From: Candidatus Nanopelagicales bacterium
GTDB taxonomy: Bacteria; Actinomycetota; Actinomycetes; S36-B12; UBA5976
Length of the DNA stretch: 26,926 bases
Direction: 5' to 3'
Assembly (NCBI GenBank): GCA_040377565.1
Contig: JBEION010000001.1
Span: 1-26,926 of the forward strand
A program made the position numbers and the translations under genes. The stretch's first letter is position 1; each line of letters begins with the position of its first letter. The notes beneath the pieces are model-generated. The model saw only the letters and a program-made list of their open reading frames with translations, made no database searches and was not told the DNA's origin. Below are positions 8,948-26,926 of this stretch, one piece after another.

Positions 8948-10218
8948 TGAGTGCTGCAAAGACTGAAGTCGTAGGGCTAGCGAAGGCTGCACGAGTGGCA
9001 GCCAGATTATTGGCAAATTGCACCCGCGCCCAAAAAGATGCCGCACTTAACTTTATGGCTCAAGCGTTACTTGATAACGCCGCTGAGATCATTGCCGCAA
9101 ATAAGCTAGATGTGCAATCAGCAACGGCTGCAAAGATAGATGCAGCAATCATTGATCGTCTCACTTTAGATCAAGTGCGAATCCAATCATTGGCTGACGG
9201 CCTCACAGACATTTCAAAACTCCCTGATCCAGTTGGCGAAACTATCCGAGAATTTGATGTTCCGTCAGGACTGCACATCACTCAGCGCCGAGTCCCATTC
9301 GGAGTGGTTGCGGTTATCTATGAAGCGCGACCTAACGTCACCGTGGATACGGCAGGACTGACGCTCAAGAGTGGAAACTGTGCATTGCTTCGAGGATCTG
9401 CATCAGCGAAAAATACGAATACGAAACTCGTGGAAGTTATGCGCGCAGCACTTTCTAAATCTGAGGTGCCAGCGGATGCAATTCAAATAGTTTCGGCCGA
9501 ATCTCATGAGTCCGTTGCTGAGTTATTGCAAGCCAGGGGACTGATTGACGTTGTGATTCCGCGTGGGGGAAGTGCCTTAATCGAACGCGTCGTAACCGAA
9601 TCAATAGTTCCAGTGATTGAAACCGGTGTTGGCAACTGCCATGTTTATATCGATAAGTCAGCTGATTTTGCCAAGGCTATATCTATCGCAATCAATTCAA
9701 AGGTGCAGCGGGTGAGTGTTTGCAATGCAGCTGAAACGATTCTGATCCATAGCGAGATAGCTGATGAGTTCATTCCAGAATTAATGCAAGCGTTCAAAGC
9801 TGAAGGGGTCACTATTCACGGCGATGATTCAGTGGCCGAATACGCAGCGCAGGCCGGTACTGCTTTCAAGCAGGCTACAGATTCAGATTGGTCAGATGAG
9901 TATTACTCGCTTGATATTGCTGCCAGAGTTGTATCTGACATAGATGATGCTCTAAGTCACATTCAGAAATGGTCGACGGGACATACTGAAGCGATCGTTG
10001 CTACCGATGAGGTTGCAATTTCTAGATTTACTTCAGAACTGGATTCAGCAGTGGTGATGGTGAATGCATCAACCCGATTTACTGATGGGGGCGAGTTTGG
10101 CTTTGGTGCCGAGATTGGAATCTCGACTCAGAAGCTTCATGCCCGAGGTCCGATGGGACTGCAAGAGCTGACAACTTCAACTTATGTTGTTGTCGGAGAC
10201 GGACATACTCGTCACTAG
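8947..10218 (+). CDS. proA: Gamma-glutamyl phosphate reductase (glutamate-5-semialdehyde dehydrogenase)
   Basis: VPFGVVAVIYEARPNVT, ETGVGNCH, SVCNAAET, VNASTRFTDGGEFGFGAEIGISTQKLHARGPMGL. The start is ATG 8947 or GTG 8944. Confidence 0.96.
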   Translation: MSAAKTEVVGLAKAARVAARLLANCTRAQKDAALNFMAQALLDNAAEIIAANKLDVQSATAAKIDAAIIDRLTLDQVRIQSLADGLTDISKLPDPVGETIREFDVPSGLHITQRRVPFGVVAVIYEARPNVTVDTAGLTLKSGNCALLRGSASAKNTNTKLVEVMRAALSKSEVPADAIQIVSAESHESVAELLQARGLIDVVIPRGGSALIERVVTESIVPVIETGVGNCHVYIDKSADFAKAISIAINSKVQRVSVCNAAETILIHSEIADEFIPELMQAFKAEGVTIHGDDSVAEYAAQAGTAFKQATDSDWSDEYYSLDIAARVVSDIDDALSHIQKWSTGHTEAIVATDEVAISRFTSELDSAVVMVNASTRFTDGGEFGFGAEIGISTQKLHARGPMGLQELTTSTYVVVGDGHTRH

Positions 10219-11327
10219 CTAGGTAGTTGCCATTGCGGTGTATTTTGTTTTCCACCTAGAGCTAATTCAGCAGTTATCTTGCCAATAGTCGGAACAAACT
10301 TAAATCCATGACCTGAACATGGCGAACACACTGTTATTGGCCCACGTCGATCCAAAATGAAGTCTTCTTCTGGTGTATTTGTGAACAAACATGTTGTTGC
10401 AGCTGCAGTATCAAGATTTAGGCCAGGGAACCAGTGCGCTACGTATTCCTTCATTTCAGTTAAATGCTTCTGGCTAATTTCAAAATCTCGATTGTCCGGA
10501 TCAATTGCCTTGCGATCACTCCAAGTTCCCACCTTGAATCCTTCACTAGGTGTGTAAAGTCCATACGCACTGGCTTCAAGAGGAGAGCCACCACGACCGT
10601 TAGCGCCGTGATGCAAGAAACTTGGCCACAATGACTCTGACTCAAGACCTGCGTTTGGTTGAAAGTGTGCTGGTTGGCCAGCGTCAACAATTAAGTCTGG
10701 AAGATCAACTAGGTGACCGACGAGTTTTTCAACCCAACCACCGGCTGCAACAACTACCGATGGAGTTCGCCAAGTTTTTGATTCAGTTTCAACAATTGCG
10801 TAGTCGCCATCGAGTTGAATCGAGAGCACACGTGTATTCAAGTGAACCTGCCCACCAAGTTCTTGGGTTCGCTGAATGAGTGTCGACACTGTCTTGTCTG
10901 CAAAACAGCGACCACCATCAGGGCTATAAAGAACGTGGTCTTCAAAATTCATTCCTGGCCAGCGACTATGTGCCTCTGCCGCGTTCATGCGCTCGTAACT
11001 TCTACCTAGTCGATCGAGGCTGGCGGCAATCTCATCGATTGCTTCTTTGTAACCGTGATCAAGTTGGCCATTTTGCTCAAGCAAGTGCTCGCCAGAATCT
11101 GCTTCCAACTCTCGCCAATCTGGAAGTGCTCTCGCCGCTAAATCTGTGTAGAGGGGAGTGCGATATGAAAGCCGAAAAATTCGGGTCCCGCCGTGCGAAC
11201 TACCTTTATCGTGAGCGATCCCAAACTGCTCAATCAGAGCCACATCTTTACCTTGCCGGGCAAGCTGCCAAGCGGTAGCGCTACCCATTGCGCCAGCACC
11301 AATCACAACATGATCAATGTGTTCCAA
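10215..11327 (-). CDS. Monomeric sarcosine oxidase / N-methyltryptophan oxidase (SolA-like) family FAD oxidoreductase
   Basis: VVIGAGAMG Rossmann motif, GSSHGGTRIFR, TCLFTNTPEEDFILD (flavinylation-type Cys), CSGHGFKF. TTG 11327 follows an AGAAGGG SD-like motif and avoids overlap with nadD. Confidence 0.82.
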   Translation of the reverse strand: MEHIDHVVIGAGAMGSATAWQLARQGKDVALIEQFGIAHDKGSSHGGTRIFRLSYRTPLYTDLAARALPDWRELEADSGEHLLEQNGQLDHGYKEAIDEIAASLDRLGRSYERMNAAEAHSRWPGMNFEDHVLYSPDGGRCFADKTVSTLIQRTQELGGQVHLNTRVLSIQLDGDYAIVETESKTWRTPSVVVAAGGWVEKLVGHLVDLPDLIVDAGQPAHFQPNAGLESESLWPSFLHHGANGRGGSPLEASAYGLYTPSEGFKVGTWSDRKAIDPDNRDFEISQKHLTEMKEYVAHWFPGLNLDTAAATTCLFTNTPEEDFILDRRGPITVCSPCSGHGFKFVPTIGKITAELALGGKQNTPQWQLPS

Positions 11328-11375
11328 GGCAATTAACCCTTCTGGCTGGGAGATTAACTCCACACTAGTTGCAAG

Positions 11376-11381
11376 TATTCT
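11376..11381 (+). promoter_or_regulatory. Putative -10 element (TATTCT) for leaderless nadD
   Basis: TANNNT 7 nt before ATG 11389, no SD. Confidence 0.45.
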
Positions 11382-11388
11382 TGTAGTC

Positions 11389-11955
11389 ATGAGGGTTGGC
11401 ATATTGGGCGGGACTTTTGACCCAATACATATCGGACATCTAATTGCTGCCAGTTCAGTTTATGAAGCCCTAAATCTTGATTCAGTAGTTTTTATCCCAG
11501 CAGGCGATCCTTGGCAAAAGCGGGATCGTGATCTGAGCCCAGGTCAACAACGCTTGGAAATGGTAAAACTAGCGACTGAAAATGACGCTCGGTTTCAAGT
11601 TAGCGACGTAGAGATTGCTCGAAGCGGTCCAACGTATGCCGTGGATACCGTACGTGAATGGAAGCGGCTGAATCCAAGCGATGAACTTTTCTGGATCGTA
11701 GGCTCCGATGCGCTTAGTGGAATTCCAAGCTGGCACGAATGGGAAGCATTAGTAAGTGAAGTAACGATTGTCGCCGTCAATCGTGTAGGGCAAAATGATT
11801 CAGTACCTTTTGATTTTGTCTCTGTAGACATGCCAGAAGTTCGAATTTCTGCAACTGAACTTCGTGACCGATTCACAAACGGGTTAGACACCCAATACCT
11901 AGTTCCAAAGAACGTCAGCCAATACATTTCAGATCAAGGTCTGTATCAAGCGTGA
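11389..11955 (+). CDS. nadD: Nicotinate-nucleotide adenylyltransferase
   Basis: GILGGTFDPIHIGH (HIGH motif), PAGDPWQK, GPTYAVDT, FWIVGSD, ISATELR. Confidence 0.95.
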   Translation: MRVGILGGTFDPIHIGHLIAASSVYEALNLDSVVFIPAGDPWQKRDRDLSPGQQRLEMVKLATENDARFQVSDVEIARSGPTYAVDTVREWKRLNPSDELFWIVGSDALSGIPSWHEWEALVSEVTIVAVNRVGQNDSVPFDFVSVDMPEVRISATELRDRFTNGLDTQYLVPKNVSQYISDQGLYQA

Positions 11956-14008: not shown

Positions 14009-14115
14009 GACCGAAGTTTCCCCGTTCAATCGTGGGAAAACTAGGGTCTAGGCAAAAATGATTTGCGGGTGTAGATTTTCATCACATTTCTTTCACGCTG
14101 AATATGGAGAAGATT

Positions 14116-15072
14116 ATGACTGATCGTTCCCGATTAGATCCTGAAACAACCATCCCGTTAGATGGTTTGCTAGAAGCTCTACCGGGTGGCTTTAATGCCA
14201 TTCCAGATATCAATGCTCGCAGAGCAACTCTTTCAGGAATGATTGCGGCGATGGAAGTTCCAGTTAATCCAAATGTGGAAGTAACCGAACATATTGCACC
14301 AGGACCTGCAGGAGACATAAAGGTCAGAGTCTTTTCACCTAAGAATGTGGCGTCCCCACGACCTGCTTTGGTTTTCATTCATGGTGGAGGAATGATTCTC
14401 GGAAGTATTGATGACGAACACGATATGGCTCAATTGATGTGTGATCAATTAGGTATGACTATTGCCAGTGTCGATTATCGTAAAGCACCAGAAAATCCTC
14501 ATCCTGCCGCCACCAATGATTGCTTTGCAGCTTCTCAGTGGGTTTTTGCTAATGCCAAATCGCTAGGCATTGATGCAAACAAAATTGGTATTTACGGAGG
14601 TAGTGCTGGTGGCGGATTGGCTATTTCTGTAGCACTTAAGGCAAGGGATGAAAAGGGACCTGATTTTAAATTTATGGTGCCGATTTATCCAATGATTGAT
14701 CATCGTAATGAATCACATTCTTCAAAGTTAATTACAGATGTGGGAATTTGGGATCGGGAAGGTTCCATTGAAGCCTGGTCTTGGTATTTAGGTGGCCAAG
14801 AACCAGATCAATATTCATCTCCTGCTATTGCTGCAAGCCTCAAAGGTCTACCACCCGCTTATATTGATGTCGGTGAAATGGATATGTTTCGTGATGAAAA
14901 TTTAGACTTTGTGAAAAGACTTGGTGAAGCAGATGTCAGAGTTGAATTTCATTTGTGGCCAGGGGTTTATCACGGAGCCGAAGTTTTTGCCCCGGATGCC
15001 ACAATTAGCCAAACGATTATGGCAACTCGGCTTGCTGGCATTAAGAGATTAGTGGAACTAATCAGTCGTTAG
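14116..15072 (+). CDS. Alpha/beta hydrolase, HSL-like (family IV) esterase
   Basis: FIHGGGM oxyanion motif, SVDYRKAPE, GGSAGG nucleophile elbow, DVGEMDMFRDE, and HGAE (catalytic His). SD GGAG 6 nt before ATG 14116. Confidence 0.9.
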   Translation: MTDRSRLDPETTIPLDGLLEALPGGFNAIPDINARRATLSGMIAAMEVPVNPNVEVTEHIAPGPAGDIKVRVFSPKNVASPRPALVFIHGGGMILGSIDDEHDMAQLMCDQLGMTIASVDYRKAPENPHPAATNDCFAASQWVFANAKSLGIDANKIGIYGGSAGGGLAISVALKARDEKGPDFKFMVPIYPMIDHRNESHSSKLITDVGIWDREGSIEAWSWYLGGQEPDQYSSPAIAASLKGLPPAYIDVGEMDMFRDENLDFVKRLGEADVRVEFHLWPGVYHGAEVFAPDATISQTIMATRLAGIKRLVELISR

Positions 15073-15146: not shown

Positions 15147-16196
15147 CTACCAGATGTCGCCCAACGTATAACCAGTCTGGAATGGATCTGAAGGATCGAT
15201 TTCCCAGATAGCTGTACCGGTAACCCAGGCACTGCCTCGGATCGTTGGAGTTACGGCTTCGTACTGGCCAATCTTGGTTGGTTCATTTACTTGACCAAAG
15301 AACTTAGTGCCCAAGAAACTCATGTGCGAAAACTCTTCACCAAGAGCAAGTTGACCTCTGCTGTACAGGGCTGACATTCGTCCGCAAGTACCAGTGCCAC
15401 AAGGGGAGCGATCCAGCATGCCCTTCCAGGTTTCCGGATCTGCGGTTAAGTTATCGCCGGTAAGTACAGCAGAGTTCTGTGCTTGCTTACCTGGCTCACG
15501 ATCACCGTTGTGCAGAATAACGATGCCAACTTTGTTAATGCTTGGATTTTCTGGATGCTCAAATTGAAGCTGCTTGTTCACTGCGTACTTGATCGCAGCG
15601 CCAGCACGAGTTATAGCTTTGGCATTTTCTGGCTTGATCTCAAGTCCAACGTTGGCAATGTTGGTTTGGGCAAAGAATTGTCCACCGAAAACTAAGTCAA
15701 TTGGAATTGGACCGTATTCCGGAATATCGACAAATTTGTCGATGTAAACCGTAAATGCTGGAACGTTTCGAATTGAGACATCTAGAACTTTGCCATCTTT
15801 GCAACGCGCAAGAACTGAAATAGTTCCAACCGCTGTATCAATAGTGACGGTGGTTTCAGGCTCTTGCATCTTTACGATGCCTTTTTCTAGGGCAGCCGTT
15901 ACCGCACACATTGTGTTACTGCCTGACATTGCAGTAAAGCCACCTTGTTCCAGAACAATGATTCCAAAATCAGAACCTTTGCTAACTGGTGGAAGAATAA
16001 ACACTGCACATAATGCTGGATAGCCGCGAGGTTCGTGCAAGATTGCGTGGCGGAACCAATCTAAATTGGCTTCACAGTAATCGAAACGTTCTTTCATGGT
16101 CTCGCCCTTAACTAGGTGAGCCATGTTGGTGATTACTCGACCGCCTTCGCCTTCAGCGTGGGCTTCGATGGTTTCAATAATCAATTTTTCAGCCAT
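15147..16196 (-). CDS. Proline racemase superfamily protein with Ser/Cys catalytic pair
   Basis: HAEGE, EPRG, MSGSN (Ser91), LVFGGQFFA, DRSPCGTGT (Cys266), GSAWVTG, DPSDPFQTGY. Confidence 0.88.
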   Translation of the reverse strand: MAEKLIIETIEAHAEGEGGRVITNMAHLVKGETMKERFDYCEANLDWFRHAILHEPRGYPALCAVFILPPVSKGSDFGIIVLEQGGFTAMSGSNTMCAVTAALEKGIVKMQEPETTVTIDTAVGTISVLARCKDGKVLDVSIRNVPAFTVYIDKFVDIPEYGPIPIDLVFGGQFFAQTNIANVGLEIKPENAKAITRAGAAIKYAVNKQLQFEHPENPSINKVGIVILHNGDREPGKQAQNSAVLTGDNLTADPETWKGMLDRSPCGTGTCGRMSALYSRGQLALGEEFSHMSFLGTKFFGQVNEPTKIGQYEAVTPTIRGSAWVTGTAIWEIDPSDPFQTGYTLGDIW

Positions 16197-16198
16197 TG

Positions 16199-17095
16199 TT
16201 AAACCGTCTTTACTCCAGCAGCATTAAGCAGCTTTGCAAAGTGAGCTTTTTGTTCAACCGAAAGCGGCAGTCCTGGTGGACGAACCGGTCCAACACTTGC
16301 GCCAATTAGTTCGCAGCCAGCCTTGATACCGGCGTAATAGTTAACTGATTCCAAGAAGTCACAGATTGGCCAGATCTTTTTCCAAAGTTCGCGACCCTTT
16401 GCCAAATCATTGTCGACAGCTAGGGCGTTATAGAGAGCTACCGCTAGTTCTGGAATTACCGTTGCAGTTCCCCAGACTGAAGCTTCAGCACCGCTGGCTA
16501 GACCAAAGAAAGTCAGAGTGTCCCAACCGTTGAAAGCTTTGATCTTGTCTGAGCGATTGGCAAGTAGGTCTGCCATTGTCACGGCATCGCCGGAAGTGTC
16601 CTTTAGGTAGTTAACGCCAGGGATTTCTCCGAGTTGTGCAATTTGTTCGGCGTTAAGCGTTACTCCAGTTGAACTTGGGATGTTGTAGTACATAACTGGA
16701 ATGGAGATCGATTCGGCTACCGAGCGCATGAATACTTGGAGTTCTGCAAAGTTAGGCGCTGCATAAAACGGTGGCAACAGCATGACACCGGTAGAGCCAG
16801 ACTTCTCGGCATGCTTAGCAAGTGAGATAGCTTCTGCAGTCGAGGTGGAACCAACTCCAGCAAAAACATGGCAACGACCGGCAGCTGCTTCGTTGACCAC
16901 TTCAAAAACTCGACGGTATTCCTGTGGAGTCAGTGTCATGAACTCACCAGTTGTGCCAGTTGGAACAACGCCATGAATTCCGGCATCAACTAGGCGATTG
17001 ATTTGGGCATGCATTGCAGCCTCATCAAGCGCACTGCCATCTGCTGTGAAAGGAGTGGTGATTGCTGCGAGGATTCCGCGAATCTCAGTTGTCAT
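16199..17095 (-). CDS. Dihydrodipicolinate synthase / class I aldolase family lyase (not necessarily DapA)
   Basis: ITTPF, GTTGEF, LPPFY, YYNIP, and LKDTSG (Schiff-base Lys). Confidence 0.88.
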   Translation of the reverse strand: MTTEIRGILAAITTPFTADGSALDEAAMHAQINRLVDAGIHGVVPTGTTGEFMTLTPQEYRRVFEVVNEAAAGRCHVFAGVGSTSTAEAISLAKHAEKSGSTGVMLLPPFYAAPNFAELQVFMRSVAESISIPVMYYNIPSSTGVTLNAEQIAQLGEIPGVNYLKDTSGDAVTMADLLANRSDKIKAFNGWDTLTFFGLASGAEASVWGTATVIPELAVALYNALAVDNDLAKGRELWKKIWPICDFLESVNYYAGIKAGCELIGASVGPVRPPGLPLSVEQKAHFAKLLNAAGVKTV

Positions 17096-17113
17096 GCTTT
17101 TACTTTCTAGGAA

Positions 17114-17413
17114 TTAAACGATGTCATTTTCAGTTACGAACATACGTTCGCGAGCCGAAAGGTGAGCTAGAGAATCGGCTGCAACACTTTTACCAATTTC
17201 GGTGGCATATGCAGCTTCAAAATCTTCCTTGGAATCAAACCAAAGTTCGGAGACTCCGTCATAAGCGCTGCCATCATCGGCAAGGTTAAACACAATCTTG
17301 CGAACTCCGGGCAAGGTTGCGGCCTTCTTGGAGTGATCAACTAACCACCACTGCTTAAAGTCATCGTGACTCATGTCTTCGCCACGCTTTAACAAGATGA
17401 TTGCTTTAAACAT
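17114..17413 (-). CDS. EthD-like dimeric alpha/beta-barrel protein
   Basis: 99 aa; LLKRGEDMSHDDFKQWWLVDH...LPGVRK...YDGVSELWFDS..F pattern. Confidence 0.8.
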   Translation of the reverse strand: MFKAIILLKRGEDMSHDDFKQWWLVDHSKKAATLPGVRKIVFNLADDGSAYDGVSELWFDSKEDFEAAYATEIGKSVAADSLAHLSARERMFVTENDIV

Positions 17414-17980
17414 TTACTTCACCTTCGTTACGCGAGCGTGTGGTCGACCGCCAACTGAATAGACAATTGCAATAACCATTTCGTTAGCACGTGGAGCATC
17501 GCCGATTGTGATCTCGGCCGAATCCATATCATCGAATTCCCAACGGTCATCTTTGTTACCAATTGGCATTGTGATTGAGGCGCCAGGTCCAGCGACTTTC
17601 TTAGTTCCAGGAATGATGTCTGCGCCGCCACCAATTGCTGCGCGTACTGATGCGCCAAAGCGCGGATGCAAAACCGCAGCCGTGTGTTCAAGTTCGCCGT
17701 CAGTTCCCACGATGGCACCCTTGCCATAGCCGCGGATGTCTGCTGCGCTTAGGCCTAAAGCTTCAAGCGCCTTAACGGCCCGATCGGCCAGAATTGCAGT
17801 GACTTCGATGCTCATCATTTCGAGCTCGGTTAAATCCTGAACCAAAGCCTTGCCAGCCAGGGGATTAGTTACCACTGCAGCGGCGATTACCTTGACAGTC
17901 GCGGGGGACACTGAAGTGCCACTTTCCCGCAGGGTTTCTTGAGTAGATACAACAATTGAGCGGATTTCAGTCATGGACAT
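17414..17980 (-). CDS. 'Amino acid synthesis' family protein (PF06684 / DUF1185-like), function unknown
   Basis: AAAVVTNPLAG, YGKGAIVGTDGELEHTAAVLH, IPGTKK, DAPRANEMV, GGRPHAR. Confidence 0.82.
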   Translation of the reverse strand: MSMTEIRSIVVSTQETLRESGTSVSPATVKVIAAAVVTNPLAGKALVQDLTELEMMSIEVTAILADRAVKALEALGLSAADIRGYGKGAIVGTDGELEHTAAVLHPRFGASVRAAIGGGADIIPGTKKVAGPGASITMPIGNKDDRWEFDDMDSAEITIGDAPRANEMVIAIVYSVGGRPHARVTKVK

Positions 17981-18045
17981 AACCTACCTCGCTAACCCCG
18001 TACTCCACCCACTAGATTTGGGTATTACCGCAACAAGGAGAAATC

Positions 18046-19539
18046 ATGACTAACCACATCACGCACTGGATAGACGGCAAGCTTTGGACAGGTAAAGCAG
18101 CCCGCACCGGTGAGGTTTACAACCCTGCAACTGGCAAATTGTCCGGAACGGTTGACTTCGCTTCAACTGCAGACATGGACGAAGCCGTTGCCGTTGCTAA
18201 GCGCGCTGGCGCTGAGTGGGCCGCTACTTCTCTTTCCAAGCGCGTGACCACCATGTTTGCCTTCCGTGAAATCTTGAACGCTCGCAAGGAAGAACTTGCT
18301 GCAATCATTACTGCCGAGCATGGCAAGGTGTTGTCTGATGCTCTTGGTGAAGTTATGCGTGGCCAAGAAGTTGTTGAGTTTGCTTGTGGCATCCCACACC
18401 TTCTAAAGGGCGGTTACTCCGAAAGCGTTTCAACGGGCGTAGATGTTTACAGCATCCGTCAGCCATTAGGTGTTGTTGGAATTATTTCTCCGTTCAACTT
18501 TCCAGCTATGGTTCCAATGTGGTTCTTCCCAATCGCAATTGCTGCCGGTAACTCTGTAATTGTTAAGCCATCTGAAAAAGATCCAAGCGCACAGAACTTC
18601 ATCGCACAAATGTGGAAAGACGCTGGTCTTCCAGACGGTGTATTCAACGTTGTACATGGTGACAAGGAAGCAGTCGATCGCATTCTTACTCACCCAGACA
18701 TCAAGGCTGTTAGCTTCGTTGGCTCAACTCCGATTGCGAAGTACATCTACGAAACCGGAACTGCACACGGCAAGCGCATCCAGGCTCTTGGTGGCGCGAA
18801 GAACCACATGGTCGTGCTTCCAGATGCAGACCTAGACCTTGCTGCTGACTCAGCAGTTAACGCAGGCTTTGGTTCCGCTGGCGAGCGCTGCATGGCGATC
18901 TCAGCACTTGTTGCTGTTGGTCCAATTGCAGATGACTTGATCTCAAAGATCGAAGATCGCATGGGCAAGATCGTTACTGGTGACGGAACTCGTGGCACTG
19001 ACATGGGACCACTTGTAACCGGCGTACATCGCGACAAGGTCAAGGGTTACATCGACACTGGTGTTGCTGAAGGCGCGACAGTTGTTGTTGATGGCCGCGA
19101 CGTTGTTCCGGATAGCGATGGTGAGGGTTACTTCATCGGACCAACACTGTTTGACAACGTAACCAAGGACATGACGATCTACAAGGAAGAAATCTTCGGA
19201 CCAGTTCTTTCCGTAGTTCGCGCTGATACTTACGAAGAAGCGCTGAAGTTGATCAACGATCACCCATACGGTAACGGAACTGCAATCTTCACTAACGATG
19301 GTGGCGCTGCTCGCCGCTTCCAGAATGAAGTTGAAGTTGGCATGATCGGCATCAACGTGCCAATCCCAGTGCCAATGGCTTACTTCTCATTCGGTGGCTG
19401 GAAAGCATCACTATTCGGCGATACCCACGCACACGGAACTGAAGGCGTTCACTTCTTTACTCGTGGCAAGGTTGTAACCAGTCGTTGGTTAGATCCAAGC
19501 CATGGTGGATTGAACCTTGGCTTCCCAACAAACGGGTAG
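18046..19539 (+). CDS. mmsA: CoA-acylating (methyl)malonate-semialdehyde dehydrogenase
   Basis: ISPFNFPAMVPMW, KPSEKDP, SFVGSTPIA, GGAKNH, SAGERCMA, EEIFGPVL, GINVPIPVP, FGDTHAHG. SD AAGGAG. Confidence 0.93.
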   Translation: MTNHITHWIDGKLWTGKAARTGEVYNPATGKLSGTVDFASTADMDEAVAVAKRAGAEWAATSLSKRVTTMFAFREILNARKEELAAIITAEHGKVLSDALGEVMRGQEVVEFACGIPHLLKGGYSESVSTGVDVYSIRQPLGVVGIISPFNFPAMVPMWFFPIAIAAGNSVIVKPSEKDPSAQNFIAQMWKDAGLPDGVFNVVHGDKEAVDRILTHPDIKAVSFVGSTPIAKYIYETGTAHGKRIQALGGAKNHMVVLPDADLDLAADSAVNAGFGSAGERCMAISALVAVGPIADDLISKIEDRMGKIVTGDGTRGTDMGPLVTGVHRDKVKGYIDTGVAEGATVVVDGRDVVPDSDGEGYFIGPTLFDNVTKDMTIYKEEIFGPVLSVVRADTYEEALKLINDHPYGNGTAIFTNDGGAARRFQNEVEVGMIGINVPIPVPMAYFSFGGWKASLFGDTHAHGTEGVHFFTRGKVVTSRWLDPSHGGLNLGFPTNG

Positions 19540-20434
19540 GCATCGCAAGCGATCTGACGGTCGCACACTTGGAATCTTTGCTGTTGCCCTAGGAACGATT
19601 ATCTGGGGCACAGTGGGTCCAGTTGTAAAGCTTTTCCCAGAAGGTACTGAATTCCAGTATTCCTTGGTTCGTAATCTCAGCGGAACAACTGCGCTCTGGT
19701 TATTCGTTTTGTTATCCAAAAACAAGAAGCGCTATACCAAGGAAGACATAGTTCCAATTTTGGTTGCTGGCACCGGCGCTGCATTGTTTTTCCCACTTTT
19801 CATCTTGGCATTTCAGTTAACCGGCGTTGGCGTAGCAGCCGTTGTATCAATTGGTGTCGCTCCGATCTTTGTTGGCTTGATTGCTTGGATTGCATTGAAG
19901 CAACCACCAGGAAAGCAGTGGGCCATCGGCACACTTATCGCGGTTACTGGCGTGGTTGCACTTAATTGGCCGAGCGGAGATAACACTGTAAGCATTCTCG
20001 GCGTGGCTTTTGCAATGGCTGCCGCATTCGGTTATTCAATGCAAGCAACTGGAATGGGCATGATTTCCAAGCGTCACACCCCGTTTCAATGTGTTGCTCC
20101 AATGTTCACAATCGGAACAATTTTTCAGGCGCCACTTAGCTACGGCAAAGACTTTAGTTTTTTGCAAGACCCCATCTTGCTAATGGGAGCACTTTACGGT
20201 GGCATAGTTACAGTTGCACTCGCTTACGCAGTCTTTATTTATGGCATTGCCCGAATTGGTGCGGCGACTGCAGTCACCGTTGGATTGATGGAGCCACTGA
20301 CTGCATCGATCTTGGGGGTAGTCCTGTTGGGAGAGACCGTATCTGCCATTGGCATAGTGGGATCGGTTTTAATTCTCGCCGGATTAGTTGTGGTAAGTAG
20401 ACCGCCGAAAGAGCCTGCCCAACTAGTTGCTTAA
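19517..20434 (+). CDS. EamA/DMT family transporter
   Basis: About 10 hydrophobic segments in two repeats; IIWGTVG, VSIGVAPIF, ARIGAATA..VGLMEPLTASILG..LLGE. TTG 19517 follows GGTGGA, but the start is uncertain. Confidence 0.85.
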   Translation: MASQQTGRHRKRSDGRTLGIFAVALGTIIWGTVGPVVKLFPEGTEFQYSLVRNLSGTTALWLFVLLSKNKKRYTKEDIVPILVAGTGAALFFPLFILAFQLTGVGVAAVVSIGVAPIFVGLIAWIALKQPPGKQWAIGTLIAVTGVVALNWPSGDNTVSILGVAFAMAAAFGYSMQATGMGMISKRHTPFQCVAPMFTIGTIFQAPLSYGKDFSFLQDPILLMGALYGGIVTVALAYAVFIYGIARIGAATAVTVGLMEPLTASILGVVLLGETVSAIGIVGSVLILAGLVVVSRPPKEPAQLVA

Positions 20435-20969: not shown

Positions 20970-22493
20970 TTACCTTACGAGTTTTGCCAGTGTCCCATTC
21001 GCAACGACATCAACCGCCGCCTGCATGTCAGGGGCTAGGAAGCGATCTGGTCCGGGTCCTGGACTGGTTTTTCGCAATTCTGCTACGGCAGCCCCAGTTA
21101 TTGGTGATGGATGCAGGGGTGACCGTAGGTCAATTGCCCGTGCAGCTGTCATTAATTCAATGCCAACAATCTTTGTCAGATTATCGATGGCTTGGCGAAG
21201 TTTGCGAGCTGAACTCCAACCCATAGATACGTGATCTTCCTGCATGGCAGAACTTGGAATCGAATCCACGCTGGCAGGGGAGGCAAGGCGCTTATTTTCG
21301 GAAACTAATGCAGCTTGGGTGTATTGCGCGATCATCAAGCCAGAATCAACACCTGGATCATCAGCTAAGAACGGTGGCAGGCCGTGGGAACGAGATTTAT
21401 CGAGCATGCGATCTGTGCGACGTTCACAAATTGAACCCAAATCAGCAGCAGCAATTGCCAAAAAATCCAAAACATAGGCAACCGGTGCGCCGTGGAAGTT
21501 TCCATTAGAGGAAACTCGACCATCGGCTAGGACCACTGGATTATCGACTGCTGCCGCAAGTTCGCGCGTTGCGACCAAAGTTGCATGCGCGATGGTGTCA
21601 CGAACTGCGCCTGTTACTTGTGGGGCGCAGCGAAGTGAATAAGCATCTTGCACGACTGATGTGTCATCTATATGTGATGCCACAATTGGGCTGCCCTTTA
21701 GAACATTCAGCATGTTTGCAGCACTTAGTGCCTGACCTGGATGTGGGCGAAGTGGTTCATGCAATTCGGGCAAGAATACTTTGTCAGTTCCGAGTAGTGC
21801 CTCGACACTCATGGCAGCAGTTACATCAACTGAGTCACAAAGCATTGTTAGGTCAGAGATGGCCATGATCAACATGCCGAGCATGCCGTCGGTCCCATTT
21901 ATTAGCGCTAGACCTTCTTTTTCCCGAAGTTCAACAGGTGTAATACCTGCAGCCTTAAGCGCATCAGATGCTGGTGTGATTCGACCCTTGCTATCTACAA
22001 CTTCACCTTCACCCATAAGCACGAGAGCGCAGTGAGCTAGTGGCGCTAAGTCGCCACTGCAACCAAGGGAACCAAATTCATAAACCGCTGGTGTGATATC
22101 TGCATTCAAGATCGCAGCCATAGTTTCAACAACTACTGGGCGAACACCTGTGTGGCCTGAGCAAAGAGTCTTCAGGCGCAGAGTCATCAAAGCGCGAGTA
22201 ACTTCACGTTCAACTAAGTTGCCAAGGCCAGCTGCGTGTGAGCGAATAAGTGACTTCTGAAGTTGCACTCGGTATTCGGGGGACACATGACGATTAGCCA
22301 GGGCGCCAAATCCAGTTGAGATTCCATAAACCGGCTCAGCGGAAGCCGCTAACGCATCAACCCGGCTTCGAGTATGTGCAACAGCTTCAATAGTTGCCGG
22401 AGCAATCACGACCTTTGCATCATGGCGAGCAACAGCAAGCACATCTTCGAATGTCATTCCAGTGGTATTGATAACCACTTCAGTGCGACTCAT
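20970..22493 (-). CDS. hutH: Histidine ammonia-lyase
   Basis: VYGISTGFGAL, LQKSLIRSHAAG, GSLGCSGDLAPL (MIO loop), KEGLALINGT, QDAYSLRCAPQV, SNGNFHG, QEDHVSMG. ATG 22493 overlaps the hutI stop (ATGA). Confidence 0.96.
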   Translation of the reverse strand: MSRTEVVINTTGMTFEDVLAVARHDAKVVIAPATIEAVAHTRSRVDALAASAEPVYGISTGFGALANRHVSPEYRVQLQKSLIRSHAAGLGNLVEREVTRALMTLRLKTLCSGHTGVRPVVVETMAAILNADITPAVYEFGSLGCSGDLAPLAHCALVLMGEGEVVDSKGRITPASDALKAAGITPVELREKEGLALINGTDGMLGMLIMAISDLTMLCDSVDVTAAMSVEALLGTDKVFLPELHEPLRPHPGQALSAANMLNVLKGSPIVASHIDDTSVVQDAYSLRCAPQVTGAVRDTIAHATLVATRELAAAVDNPVVLADGRVSSNGNFHGAPVAYVLDFLAIAAADLGSICERRTDRMLDKSRSHGLPPFLADDPGVDSGLMIAQYTQAALVSENKRLASPASVDSIPSSAMQEDHVSMGWSSARKLRQAIDNLTKIVGIELMTAARAIDLRSPLHPSPITGAAVAELRKTSPGPGPDRFLAPDMQAAVDVVANGTLAKLVR

Positions 22494-23683
22494 GCGATAT
22501 CTCCTTTTGTGAAAATGACATTTCCATCTTTCCAAGTAGTGCTGATCAGCGGTACGCCTGGGCGGTAGGCCAAGTGAATGTAGCTTGGCGCATTAAGTAG
22601 CGCAAAGTTTGCTCGAGCTCCAACAGATAAATGGCCAACGTCGTCGCGTCGCAGTGCAGTTGCGCCACCCATAGTTGCGGCAAATAGTGATTCATCCACT
22701 GTCATGTGCATCTCGCGCACAGCCAGGGCAATACAGAACGGCATGTTTGTTGTAAATGAACTGCCGGGATTGCAATCAGGGGAGAGCGCCACCGCAGCTC
22801 CAGCATCTAGCAAGTCGCGACCACGCGGGTAGTGCGGAGCGCGGGTGCTGAAATCTGCACCAGGAACTAACCCAGCTACTGTGCTACTTGCCGCAAGGGC
22901 GCTGATGTCATCGTCAGCTAAGTAGGTCAAGTGATCTGCTGAGGCGCAATCTAATTCGATTGCCATAGCGATACCGTCGCCTTGTTCCAACTGGTTCAAA
23001 TGAATCCGAGGCTGCAAACCTTTGCCGATTCCAGCTTCTAGGATTCGACGTGATTGCTCGGTGGTAAATGCACCGCGATCACAAAAGACATCGATCCACT
23101 TTGAATGTGGCGCGCAAGCTTCAAGCATTTCTCCAACGACAAGATCAACGTAAGCATCAGGATTGCCTGCGAATTCAGGTGCAACTACGTGGGCGCCAAG
23201 GTAGGTGACTTCATCAGTTAGTTCTGCAGCAATTCGCAAACTTCGTTCTTCAGTTGCAACATCGAGCCCGTAACCTGACTTGATTTCAATTGTGGTTGTT
23301 CCAGATTCATGCATTTCTTTGATCATGCTTTGGGCAACCGTGCGAAGTTCGGCATCGCTTGCTTTGCGCGTTGCCTCAGTAGTTACCTTTATGCCACCTG
23401 CAGAGTAAGGAACGCCAGCCATTCGTGCTGCGAACTCTTCTGATCTATCTCCAGCAAACATGATGTGGGAATGGCTATCAACAAATCCTGGAATCAGACT
23501 TCGTCCACCAACATCAGTTTTGGGAACGCTTGAATCTGCCTGGCTGGATTGACCAATCCAGCTCACGATTCCATCCGTAACGGTTATCGCTGCATCGTTG
23601 ATAACACCAAGTTGACCATCACCAAGGGCTGAATTGTTGGTAACAAGTTGACTGATATTTGTGAGCGTGAACGATTTACTCAT
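22490..23683 (-). CDS. hutI: Imidazolonepropionase
   Basis: PGFVDSHSH..FAGDR..EF, TTIEIKSGYGL, DVFCDRGAF, SADHL, DCNPGSS. Confidence 0.95.
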   Translation of the reverse strand: MSKSFTLTNISQLVTNNSALGDGQLGVINDAAITVTDGIVSWIGQSSQADSSVPKTDVGGRSLIPGFVDSHSHIMFAGDRSEEFAARMAGVPYSAGGIKVTTEATRKASDAELRTVAQSMIKEMHESGTTTIEIKSGYGLDVATEERSLRIAAELTDEVTYLGAHVVAPEFAGNPDAYVDLVVGEMLEACAPHSKWIDVFCDRGAFTTEQSRRILEAGIGKGLQPRIHLNQLEQGDGIAMAIELDCASADHLTYLADDDISALAASSTVAGLVPGADFSTRAPHYPRGRDLLDAGAAVALSPDCNPGSSFTTNMPFCIALAVREMHMTVDESLFAATMGGATALRRDDVGHLSVGARANFALLNAPSYIHLAYRPGVPLISTTWKDGNVIFTKGDIA

Positions 23684-23685
23684 GG

Positions 23686-25380
23686 TTAAAGTAAGTCACC
23701 ATTTGCACTCTTGGCTTCATGGGAATGCGGTTGCATTGGAATGTGAACGTTTCTTTCAGCAGCAACTTCAATCGCCTTGTCGTAACCTGCATCCACGTGA
23801 CGAATCACTCCCATACCTGGATCGTTAGTTAAGACTCGAGCAAGTTTCTGAGCAGCAAGTGGCGTGCCATCTGCTACCGATACTTGGCCGGCGTGAATAG
23901 AGCGACCAATACCAACGCCACCACCATGATGGATTGAAACCCAAGATGCACCGGAAGAGATGTTGATCATGGCGTTCAGCAACGGCCAGTCAGCAATTGC
24001 ATCCGATCCATCCAACATGGCTTCAGATTCGCGATACGGAGAAGCTACTGAACCACAATCCAAGTGGTCACGACCGATGACAATTGGCGCACTAACTTCG
24101 CCACTAGCAACAAGTTCATTGAATGCAAGGCCAGCCTTGTCGCGCTCGCCATAACCAAGCCAGCAGATTCGTGCCGGTAGACCTTGGAAGGCTACGCGGT
24201 CTTGGGCCATGGTGATCCAGCGACGCAAGTGATCGTTGTCTGGAAACAGATCAAGTACTGCCTTGTCGGTGCGAGCAATATCTTTTGGGTCGCCAGAAAG
24301 TGCAGCCCAACGAAACGGTCCTTTACCTTCGCAGAACAGTGGGCGGATGTAAGCCGGAATGAAACCAGGGAATTCAAATGCCCGGTCATAGCCACCTTTG
24401 CGAGCTTCATCGCGAATGCTGTTGCCGTAGTCAAATACTTCAGCGCCCTTATCCATGAAACCCACCATGGCTTCAACGTGCCTAGCCATTGACTCTTGCG
24501 CGAGCTTTGTGAATTCATCTGGCTTGTTATCCGCATACTCACGAGCATCGGCAAAGTCCATGCCAGCTGGAATGTAGTAAAGCGGATCATGTGCTGAAGT
24601 CTGATCTGTGACGATGTCTGCATCAACATCCATGGCAAGCAGTTTTGGGAGAACTTCTGCGGCATTGCCAACTAATCCAACGGAAAGTGGGCGACGTGCC
24701 GCTTTAGCATCAAGACAGCGACGTACAGCATCTTCAAGGTCGTCAGCGATCTCATCGAGGTAGCGAGTTTCAACGCGTCGCTTCAGTCTTGTTGGATCAA
24801 TGTCAATCATTAAGCAGACGCCATCGTTCATAGTTACGGCCAAAGGCTGCGCGCCACCCATGCCACCACAGCCACCAGTGATTGTTAACGTGCCAGCCAA
24901 AGTGCCGCCAAATTTCTTGGCAGCAACTGCCGCGAAAGTCTCGTAAGTGCCTTGCAAGATTCCTTGCGTGCCGATGTAGATCCAAGAGCCGGCAGTCATC
25001 TGGCCATACATGGTCAGTCCCATGTGCTCTAACCGGCGAAACTCTGGCCAAGTTGCCCAGTCACCTACAAGGTTTGAATTAGCAAGAATTACGCGCGGCG
25101 CCCATTCGTGAGTCTGGAAGACACCAACTGGCTTTCCTGACTGCACCAACATGGTTTCGTCGTTCTCTAAGTTTGTGAGGGTGCGCACGATGGCATCAAA
25201 GGATTCCCAGTTACGCGCAGCTTTACCAGTGCCGCCATAGACCACTAATTCATCTGGGTATTCAGCCACTTCTGGATCAAGATTGTTCTGCAGCATTCGC
25301 AATGCTGCTTCCTGCTGCCACCCTTTGGTCGTCAAAGTAGTGCCTCGAGCGGCTCTAACTGGGCGCGGTCCTGAAGTCAT
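23686..25380 (-). CDS. hutU: Urocanate hydratase
   Basis: [84 protein letters not shown]. Confidence 0.98.
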
Positions 25381-25397
25381 GTGATTCCTTTGGCTAT

Positions 25398-25441
25398 TTA
25401 GTACTAATCGAGGTTACTCCAGGCGGTAGGCCAGATCTCAA
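25398..25441 (-). promoter_or_regulatory. Putative hutU promoter with palindromic operator candidate
   Basis: On the minus strand: TTGAGA (25441-36), 19 nt, TAACCT (25416-11). A perfect 10-bp palindrome TTAGTACTAA at 25398-25407 covers the expected start site. Confidence 0.35.
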
Positions 25442-25482
25442 GGTTCCCAAAAGGCTATGGTTAAGGCGTTGAAAGGGTAAAT

Positions 25483-26385
25483 ATGACAAACCTTCCCGTT
25501 GATGAGTTTTGGCCTCGCGCAGGACATTGGCTCGAAGCTGGCTCCACTGCCGAGAAAACCAACATCACTGTTATTGGAGTAGGTGCGCACTTAACTTCAC
25601 TTACGCCAACTGGCGCAGACAAAACTCCTGATGCAATCCGTGAGGCTATGTATAGGTACTCAACTTATTCGTGGGCACATGATTTAGACATTGCTTCAGT
25701 TTCAGTTCGCGACGCCGGCAACATTCCTGATCCAGATTGGGAAGAAGGTGAAGCGCGAGTTTTTGCAAAGATGGATGAACTTCGCGGTAAGCAAGATCTT
25801 CTAGTTGCTCTTGGTGGTGACAATGCAATTACCTATTCAGTCGGGAAAGGTTTGTGGGCTGACGAAATCGGCAAAGCTGGACTGATCACAATTGATGCGC
25901 ATCACGATATTCGCGAAGGCATCAGCAATGGTTCACCAGTTCGCCGCTTGATTGCTGCCGGCCTACAAGGCACTCACATCGTTCAAATTGGAATTAGCGA
26001 TTACGCGAATTCGCCCGAGTATGCCCGTCGCGTCAAGGAATACGGCATAACGGTAATCACCCGAGCCGAAATGCGTAGCCGTTCACTGGAAGACATCATG
26101 GCCCAAGCAATCAGCATTGCTGGAGCCAGTGGGGGACAGATTCACTACGACCTAGATGTAGATGTTTGCGATCGGGCCGTTACACCTGCCTGCCCAGCTG
26201 CCACTCCTGGCGGTTTATCGGCTGATGACGTAAGAGAACTGACATTCTTGGCGACATCTCACGCGAGTGTGACTAGCATGGACATTACTGAAATTGATGC
26301 CACGATTGATTCAGCGGATGAACGAACGATTCGTCTTGGCGCATTATGTGTTTTGGAAGCTGCAGCTGGCGTTGCCAGTCGCTAA
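25483..26385 (+). CDS. hutG: Arginase/ureohydrolase family, probable formimidoylglutamase
   Basis: GGDNAITY (His-to-Asn typical of HutG), IDAHHDIR, SNGSP, QIGI, DLDVDVCD, PAATPGG. Divergent from hutU. Confidence 0.8.
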   Translation: MTNLPVDEFWPRAGHWLEAGSTAEKTNITVIGVGAHLTSLTPTGADKTPDAIREAMYRYSTYSWAHDLDIASVSVRDAGNIPDPDWEEGEARVFAKMDELRGKQDLLVALGGDNAITYSVGKGLWADEIGKAGLITIDAHHDIREGISNGSPVRRLIAAGLQGTHIVQIGISDYANSPEYARRVKEYGITVITRAEMRSRSLEDIMAQAISIAGASGGQIHYDLDVDVCDRAVTPACPAATPGGLSADDVRELTFLATSHASVTSMDITEIDATIDSADERTIRLGALCVLEAAAGVASR

Positions 26386-26402
26386 TTAGGTAAAGGAACG
26401 AA

Positions 26403-26926
26403 ATGACAACGCTAAAGAACTTCATCAACGGCAAGTTCGTAGATTGCTCAAGCAACGAAACTATGTCGTTTGAAAATCCTGCAATCGGCCAGGTTTACGG
26501 AACTGCTCCACTTTCCCGAGCAAATGATGTTGATGCAGCATTTAAAGCTGCCAGTGATGCCTTCCTGGGTTGGAAGCGCACCGCACCAGCAGATCGCTCA
26601 CTTGCACTGTTCCGGATTGCAGATGCGATGGAAGCTCGCGCTGATGAAATTGTTGCCGCCGAAATTCAAAACACCGGCAAGCCACTTTGGTGGATGCGCG
26701 ATGCCGAATTCCCACAGTGCGTTGACCACACTCGTTTCCATGCAACTATGGCGCGCAACTTGCCAGGTTGGTCCACAGGCGAATTCCTAAGTGGTTACGA
26801 CTCAACAGTTCGCCGCGAACCAGTTGGTGTTTGTGCGCAGGTTGCACCTTGGAACTACCCGTTACTAATGGCGGTCTGGAAGTTTGCGCCAGCACTTGCA
26901 ATGGGTAACACCATCGTGTTGAAGCC
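26403..26926 (+). CDS. Aldehyde dehydrogenase, gamma-aminobutyraldehyde dehydrogenase-like (partial, runs off the window)
   Basis: My translation: MTTLKNFINGKF...NTGKP...RREPVGVCAQVAPWNYPLLMAVWKFAPALAMGNTIVLK. SD AAAGGAA. Missing from the ORF track because there is no stop codon. Confidence 0.85.
   Translation, partial: MTTLKNFINGKFVDCSSNETMSFENPAIGQVYGTAPLSRANDVDAAFKAASDAFLGWKRTAPADRSLALFRIADAMEARADEIVAAEIQNTGKPLWWMRDAEFPQCVDHTRFHATMARNLPGWSTGEFLSGYDSTVRREPVGVCAQVAPWNYPLLMAVWKFAPALAMGNTIVLK

Follow-up and report, generated by a model that had tools for sequence, protein, structure and literature searches.

Introduction

Within the proline-racemase superfamily (PRS), the Ser/Cys enzymes of PDB entries 4LB0 and 4Q2H are proven 4-hydroxyproline 2-epimerases (4HypE), whereas dehydratases have Thr at the second catalytic site (PMC4113996). 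Zhao et al. predicted 4HypE from gene neighbourhoods of D-amino-acid oxidase (DAAO), DHDPS-family and aldehyde dehydrogenase (ALDH) genes (PMC4113996). In the genetically validated hydroxyproline (Hyp) operon of Streptomyces coelicolor, a DHDPS gene is followed by the epimerase gene, and the semialdehyde dehydrogenase is encoded elsewhere (PMC6608401). As the D-Hyp dehydrogenase of this organism differs in type from that of Sinorhizobium meliloti (PMC6608401), the oxidase is a known variable step. A separate family, PF06684, has a hexameric fold resembling Bacillus chorismate mutase and no assigned reaction (PMC2954203); its member TgnF has been reported to stimulate the aldehyde dehydrogenase TgnE (PMC7913881). 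Here we examine an operon of a freshwater acI actinobacterium (Nanopelagicales; 97-100% identity to Candidatus Nanopelagicales MAGs; assembly of 1.29 Mb, 74.6% complete) in which genes of the DHDPS and PRS families are preceded by those of a PF06684 protein and an EthD-family protein. The four genes lie at positions 15147-17980 of a 26,926-nt stretch of DNA, the whole of which is referred to as the window. An earlier interpretation made from the DNA letters and open reading frames (ORFs) alone, hereafter the sequence-only reading, had taken them for one, apparently undescribed catabolic pathway.

Two gene pairs joined in one operon

The four minus-strand ORFs are separated by gaps of 0, 18 and 2 nt (Table 1). 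ORFs and Pfam scores both bear out the families, strand and spacing given in the sequence-only reading, which was also right that the operon itself contains no oxidase, dehydrogenase or reductase gene. While describing the four genes correctly, it overlooked a divergently oriented gene for a CoA-acylating methylmalonate/malonate-semialdehyde dehydrogenase (MMSDH), which starts 65 nt away, and the EamA gene behind it. A single conserved pathway of all four genes was not supported: DHDPS and PRS are orthologous to a canonical pair, PF06684 and EthD form an independent cassette, each pair occurs in genomes where no match to the other was found, and DHDPS is missing from the operon in sister species. 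The explanation that we favour, at somewhat better than even confidence, is a mosaic operon: two modules of two genes each, independent of one another elsewhere, have come together in one acI genus, and the Hyp route is completed in trans.

Judged from sequence (55-65% identity) and gene order, the DHDPS and PRS genes are orthologous to two neighbouring genes of canonical DAO-DHDPS-PRS(-ALDH) trans-4-hydroxyproline clusters; for DHDPS, identity to the cluster gene is 56-65%. Their closest homologues outside acI (60-67% identity for DHDPS and 55-61% for PRS) come from the same contigs, where they lie side by side in a DAO-DHDPS-PRS(-ALDH-SDR-SDR) context, in most cases preceded by an ABC transporter and with a GntR regulator nearby. 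Such clusters were found in Arthrobacter (L063), Agromyces (L064) and at three further loci (L089, L090 and L093). Within the taxonomic order of the window's organism, a sister family also has the DAO-DHDPS-PRS trio, seen in ten genomes; the oxidase there shares 55-59% identity with that of Arthrobacter. DHDPS and PRS have diverged about equally from their canonical-cluster orthologues, which fits inheritance as a pair. A late insertion of DHDPS from an outside donor was rejected on this ground and on that of the PRS tree. There, all acI sequences group in a single clade (support 99/91), and the DHDPS-less loci L042 and L015/L017 nest inside a clade of DHDPS-bearing loci, pointing to repeated loss of DHDPS rather than late gain.

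The primary structures of the two enzymes agree with this assignment. The PRS protein carries the dyad Ser91/Cys266 (MSGSN from residue 90 and SPCGTG from residue 264, in the context DRSPCGTGT), a two-base dyad of the kind (Cys/Cys or Ser/Cys) that characterizes the canonical trans-4-hydroxyproline enzymes; at the second catalytic position, where dehydratases have Thr, the residue is Cys266. The Ser/Cys dyad is invariant in the PRS orthologues from canonical clusters. Matches to the solved subgroups of the superfamily are nearly equidistant (E 1e-58 to 1e-65), so that homology to an assayed enzyme cannot settle the function. With dyad and gene context taken together, the protein is probably a 4-hydroxyproline 2-epimerase. 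The DHDPS-family protein displays the motifs TGTTGE (46), YYNIP (136) and LKDTSG (164) and scores below every NCBIfam equivalog cut-off, dapA included; a separate DapA-like copy is also present in the genome. Its gene lies 2 nt upstream of, and thus adjoins, that of the predicted epimerase, and its product is probably a deaminase of delta1-pyrroline-4-hydroxy-2-carboxylate (Pyr4H2C).

PF06684 and EthD constitute an independent conserved cassette that travels with various partners. The PF06684 protein is full-length (profile positions 1-174 of 175), with matches to PDB 2QTP (SPO0826; E 3.5e-44) and 3BYQ (E 1.2e-19), and the start codon of EthD comes directly after its stop codon. Of 43 actinobacterial loci (L001-L043), 41 have EthD directly behind PF06684; L041 breaks off within PF06684, and L008 shortly after EthD. 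What comes next differs from locus to locus: DHDPS-PRS, PRS without DHDPS, a class-III aminotransferase, a gene of DAO+GCV_T type resembling dimethylglycine dehydrogenase, a P450 (behind FO synthase), or no gene on the strand. The EthD gene is single-copy in each of four genomes, and its alignment contains 23 invariant columns; against PDB, the protein showed a weak match to 4-methylmuconolactone methylisomerase (3HDS, E 1.7e-4). The statement of the sequence-only reading that the reactions of PF06684 and EthD proteins are not known still stands. Structure prediction of a complex between the two gave a score of 0.00, which carries no weight for or against an interaction. A role of PF06684 as a substitute for RidA was rejected, as the genomes have 3-4 RidA-family genes. 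The genome has a second PF06684 paralogue, 37% identical to that of the operon, which heads an operon (L091:1547-5518, on contig C168) of AA_synth, alpha/beta hydrolase, luciferase-like monooxygenase and ALDH genes resembling the trigonelline (tgnCDEF-type) cluster. The TgnF-type context, in which alpha/beta hydrolase, flavin monooxygenase and ALDH genes are clustered, is thus present at this paralogue and absent at the PF06684 gene in the window.

The distribution of the genes was examined in 91 genomes of the family, representing 8 genera; the window genus is represented by 38 genomes besides the window's own. MMSDH was present in 75 of the 91 genomes and in all 8 genera, and the cassette in 31 genomes of 2 genera, namely 29 of the 38 from the window genus (and the window's own) and otherwise one other genus. 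An operon-type DHDPS (at least 92% identical) was found in 18 of the 39 window-genus genomes, the window's included. Five genomes of this genus have MMSDH and gave no match to the cassette, PRS or DHDPS. Three configurations occur in the genus, each divergent from MMSDH: PF06684-EthD-DHDPS-PRS, PF06684-EthD-PRS and PF06684-EthD-aminotransferase. Genomes with the aminotransferase configuration have a PRS orthologue (56-59%) elsewhere, beside an SDR gene, and a DHDPS orthologue (55-61%, designated type 2) in a further cluster, which also contains genes for a GntR regulator, a P5C-reductase-like protein and a DAO. Conversely, genomes with the window-type configuration have the aminotransferase orthologue (75%) elsewhere, which places the break point right after EthD. 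One type-2 locus of the genus (L130:4269-9457, genome G133, DHDPS 60%) reads histidinol-dehydrogenase-like, DHDPS, GntR, P5C-reductase-like, DAO; neither the Arthrobacter Hyp oxidase nor the DAO in the window is an orthologue of this DAO, and the cluster may represent another imino-acid route.

What speaks most strongly against one pathway of four genes is a double dissociation. In genus g23, all three genomes (97-99% complete) have the cassette and none has a racemase-family match at E 1e-40; genomes G140, G063 and G279 have the canonical Hyp trio and no cassette match. Five further genomes of the order carry both cassette and canonical trio, on different contigs. At least seven species-level loci (L013, L015, L017, L022, L023, L026 and L042) have lost DHDPS but retain PRS; in G004, a genome of this kind, the two other DHDPS paralogues are the only ones. 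The sequence-only reading would have been abandoned if the genes did not co-occur in other genomes. Co-occurrence does exist, but the four-gene fusion was seen in one genus only, where sister species are without the operon DHDPS.

Within that genus the operon is a real unit. At least 11 species-representative genomes show all four genes in identical order, and three more contigs carrying the operon end after DHDPS; such recurrence indicates that the arrangement is not due to chance. All four genes are under strong purifying selection, and none is decaying: pairwise dN/dS against six operon-bearing genomes was 0.00-0.05 at dS 0.16-2.6 for the four genes and MMSDH (0.00-0.03 for PF06684, and 0.01-0.03 at dS up to 2.2 for the operon DHDPS). 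At one locus (L004:7493-8419, genome G276), the racemase-family match begins only at residue 40, after a gap of ~90 nt behind DHDPS; a truncated N-terminus, a frameshift or faulty assembly could account for this.

Metatranscriptome contigs from river and lake cover the four genes and span each junction (17229-17554, 16482-17169 and 16114-16474). They are probably derived from a single transcript, a consistency short of proof given possible DNA contamination of such libraries. Another contig covers 17650-18040, including most of the 65-nt divergent region. A scan of the operon revealed no internal promoter- or terminator-like signals above the shuffled expectation, and no sigma-70-like consensus was found in the divergent region. 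Contig depth at MMSDH was several-fold that of the operon, perhaps for no other reason than that conserved MMSDH genes of relatives were mapped onto the stretch.

A proposed hydroxyproline route completed in trans

In the route that we propose, the epimerase would convert trans-4-hydroxy-L-proline to cis-4-hydroxy-D-proline (c4DHyp), whose oxidation would yield Pyr4H2C, and the DHDPS-family deaminase would form alpha-ketoglutarate semialdehyde. We infer that genes outside the operon provide the oxidase and the semialdehyde dehydrogenase, candidates being a DadA-like dehydrogenase and one of several ALDHs. PF06684 and EthD, a translationally coupled cassette, precede other amine-transforming enzymes elsewhere, and would probably perform a general auxiliary step, such as the handling of an unstable imine, enamine or aldehyde, rather than one specific to hydroxyproline.

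Candidates for the trans-acting enzymes were sought in the genomes. The two best DAO matches adjoin a polyamine-type ABC transporter and an Asp/Glu-racemase-like gene, respectively. One of them is a DadA-like D-amino-acid dehydrogenase (NF001933, 389.7 bits against a cut-off of 383, scored in a close relative), a candidate that could oxidise c4DHyp in place of the cluster oxidase. No semialdehyde dehydrogenase gene is in the operon, the neighbouring ALDH being MMSDH. The best ALDH by identity is a partial gene at 26403-26924, 46% identical over 171 aa to the cluster enzyme and assigned, like the ALDH of the Arthrobacter Hyp cluster, to NCBIfam NF010000. Two OCD-family genes and one Ldh_2 gene are candidate pyrroline-2-carboxylate reductases. 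The sequence-only reading would also have been abandoned if the enzymes reconstituted a standard Hyp pathway with partners encoded elsewhere; the genome points in part that way, as candidate partners (DadA-like, several ALDHs, OCD and Ldh_2) are present in it. An MSOX/SolA-like FAD oxidase encoded at 10215-11402 (minus strand; NF008425, 255.8 bits against a cut-off of 257) lies between proA and nadD, an order that is syntenic in relatives. It was rejected as a specific partner on account of this conserved context, of its absence from the hits to the Arthrobacter cluster oxidase, and of only 26% identity to the DAO of the type-2 DHDPS cluster.

Several observations weigh against this route. A search of five acI genomes, including two that are ~98% complete, found no orthologue of the cluster-type D-Hyp oxidase; identity of the top matches is 27-30%, while DHDPS and PRS keep ~60%. 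The best-matching ALDHs of the genome are 39-46% identical to the cluster ALDH, none exceeding 46%. PF06684-EthD occupies the exact position of the oxidase in canonical clusters. Within the genus, the genomes bearing PRS are almost exactly those bearing the cassette (these genomes are kin and not independent), and the PF06684-EthD-PRS trio persists down to 57-60% PRS identity; together, the co-presence and the persistent trio raise the possibility of functional coupling. In addition, a strict canonical pathway does not explain why species that have lost DHDPS keep PRS under selection. The position of the cassette, the missing oxidase orthologue and the co-presence of cassette and PRS keep a non-orthologous replacement of the oxidase alive, at low probability.

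Alternative explanations

By analogy with TgnF and TgnE, PF06684 and EthD might serve the divergent MMSDH by preparing or delivering malonate or methylmalonate semialdehyde, DHDPS-PRS being an unrelated passenger on the transcript. We consider this unlikely. The adjacency of MMSDH and PF06684-EthD is found in every sampled genome of the genus with both on one contig, and in the sister species the next gene is that of a class-III (omega) aminotransferase. Enzymes of this class are the classical producers of malonate semialdehyde. The second PF06684 paralogue, moreover, shares its operon with an ALDH, and TgnF is reported to stimulate TgnE (PMC7913881). However, MMSDH is a core gene, single-copy in five genomes and with its only copy in the window's genome at this locus, and its range across the 91 genomes greatly exceeds that of the cassette; five genomes of the same genus have it without the cassette, genus g6 has the two on different contigs, and outside the family the cassette is not adjacent to it. 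The contrast between core MMSDH and patchy cassette, along with the separation in g6, suggests that the adjacency may be no more than the mark of an insertion next to a core gene. MMSDH is a neighbour of the operon, and any partnership between them is putative.

Quite unlikely is a non-canonical pathway in which PF06684-EthD functionally replaces the D-hydroxyproline oxidase and the Ser/Cys enzyme acts on another proline-type N-heterocycle. As a dehydratase or epimerase, it would turn a substrate such as a 3-hydroxy- or 3,4-dihydroxyproline into a pyrroline-carboxylate without redox chemistry, PF06684 and EthD would tautomerise or hydrolyse the imine, and DHDPS would finish the route. Such a pathway would accommodate the cassette at the oxidase position upstream of DHDPS-PRS, the failure to find an orthologous oxidase, the genome-by-genome co-occurrence of cassette and PRS in the genus, and the strong purifying selection on all four genes, as well as a PF06684 member in a tgn-like cluster of the same genome, a cluster of the type that opens the ring of an N-heterocyclic acid. 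On the other hand, the Ser/Cys dyad and orthology indicate 4HypE, and a dehydratase-type enzyme is already present in the form of a second PRS paralogue (L128:945-1943, on contig C182; 33-35% identical) with a Ser/Thr dyad (MSGSN / DRSPTGTG) of the 3-hydroxyproline-dehydratase type. Together with the OCD and Ldh_2 genes, this paralogue makes a separate 3-hydroxyproline route plausible, which argues against a dehydratase role of the Ser/Cys enzyme. Some genomes have the cassette and no PRS match, others the canonical cluster and no cassette match, sister species have the cassette before an aminotransferase with PRS elsewhere, DHDPS is dispensable in several species, and neither the PF06684 nor the EthD protein has a recognisable redox cofactor site. 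The more specific proposal, that the cassette displaced the flavoprotein oxidase and, jointly with the Ser/Cys enzyme and whether or not DHDPS takes part, processes a proline-type heterocycle by a route that needs no oxidase, is very improbable. As an example, 3,4-dihydroxyproline from algal or diatom wall protein would be dehydrated straight to Pyr4H2C, with PF06684 and EthD responsible for enamine-imine tautomerisation or ring opening. If true, two widespread families of unknown function would thereby have their first assigned reaction. As for the Ser/Thr paralogue, in a near-complete relative (L126:7057-8118) it is followed by a P450 gene, and an orthologue of the class-III aminotransferase lies ~3 kb away.

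Least probable of all is a racemase-family enzyme acting alone, as a proline/hydroxyproline racemase salvaging D-imino acids from dissolved organic matter, with DHDPS a leftover under loss: the seven or more loci without DHDPS, and G004 with its two other paralogues, are in its favour, but DHDPS, where present, is not decaying, and type-2 genomes retain an orthologue elsewhere.

Neighbouring genes

The features of the locus are listed in Table 1. Further along the window (20970-26924), hutH, hutI and hutU lie on the minus strand, followed by a divergent hutG-like arginase-fold gene and the partial ALDH gene. On the other side, a hormone-sensitive-lipase-type esterase (Abhydrolase_3) is encoded at 14104-15072 on the plus strand, convergent with the operon. 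It was undetected in the related loci searched, and is probably a strain-specific insertion. At L001, the distance from PRS to the next gene is only ~330 nt.

Table 1. The operon and its divergent neighbours in the window
Feature	Position	Strand	Evidence and remarks
PF06684 (AA_synth/DUF1185) protein, 188 aa	17414-17980	-	First operon gene; Pfam 187 bits, cut-off 27
EthD-family protein, 99 aa	17114-17413	-	PF07110 43.6 bits, cut-off 22; TIGR02118 42.6 bits
DHDPS-family enzyme, 298 aa	16199-17095	-	PF00701 218.6 bits, cut-off 22.1
Proline-racemase-superfamily enzyme (PRS), 349 aa	15147-16196	-	PF05544 Pro_racemase 325.9 bits, cut-off 27
Divergent intergenic region, 65 nt, operon to MMSDH	17981-18045		ORF coordinates
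CoA-acylating methylmalonate/malonate-semialdehyde dehydrogenase (MMSDH)	18046-19539	+	TIGR01722 703 bits, cut-off 448.5
EamA/DMT-family transporter; start overlaps MMSDH stop; syntenic in relatives	19517-20434	+	Pfam EamA 114.7 bits

Significance and comparison with known systems

acI Actinobacteria rank with the most abundant bacteria of fresh water, and work on which carbon and nitrogen sources they use is still in progress. Hydroxyproline is a constituent of collagen and of plant and algal wall protein. The operon suggests that a portion of a hydroxyproline route, its oxidase step not yet accounted for, has been retained in one acI genus. In this genus alone, a well-known hydroxyproline module, here in trimmed form, was seen fused to a conserved cassette of unknown function. 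PF06684-EthD is conserved, strongly selected and found beside several amine-transforming enzymes; the locus adds one context without solving its function. The mosaic structure is also a caution: adjacency of four genes is not by itself a reason to annotate a new pathway.

Compared with the canonical trans-4-hydroxyproline clusters of Micrococcales and the sister family, the operon has an orthologous DHDPS-PRS pair in the same adjacent order. It differs from them in having neither oxidase/dehydrogenase nor semialdehyde dehydrogenase, in having PF06684-EthD in the oxidase position, and in having no transporter or GntR regulator attached. With the Ser/Cys 4-hydroxyproline 2-epimerases of superfamily cluster 9 (Avi_7022/B9K4G4, PDB 4LB0; B9JQV3, PDB 4Q2H), the PRS protein shares both catalytic residues (Ser in first, Cys in second place), and its orthologues likewise sit in DAAO/DHDPS/ALDH neighbourhoods. 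Nevertheless, it is no closer to 4LB0 and 4Q2H (E 2e-59 and 8e-62) than to the Ser/Thr dehydratase 4K8L (1e-64) or the Cys/Cys proline racemase 7PB3 (3e-65), and belongs to a separate actinobacterial clade whose members are known by sequence only.

TgnF of the Acinetobacter baylyi trigonelline cluster, SPO0826 (2QTP) and BB2672 (3BYQ) belong to the same Pfam family as the PF06684 protein, a family for which, to our knowledge, no reaction is known for any member. As in the TgnF system, an ALDH-family gene, here MMSDH, is next door; unlike TgnF, the protein is paired with EthD, has no hydrolase or monooxygenase partner, and is only 37% identical to the tgn-like paralogue of its own genome. The EthD protein shares its domain family (dimeric alpha+beta barrel) with EthD of Rhodococcus ethRABCD and with 4-methylmuconolactone methylisomerase (PDB 3HDS). 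Its similarity to the latter is marginal (E 2e-4); in comparison with ethRABCD, there is no P450 gene at the window, but related loci do show the order PF06684-EthD-P450.

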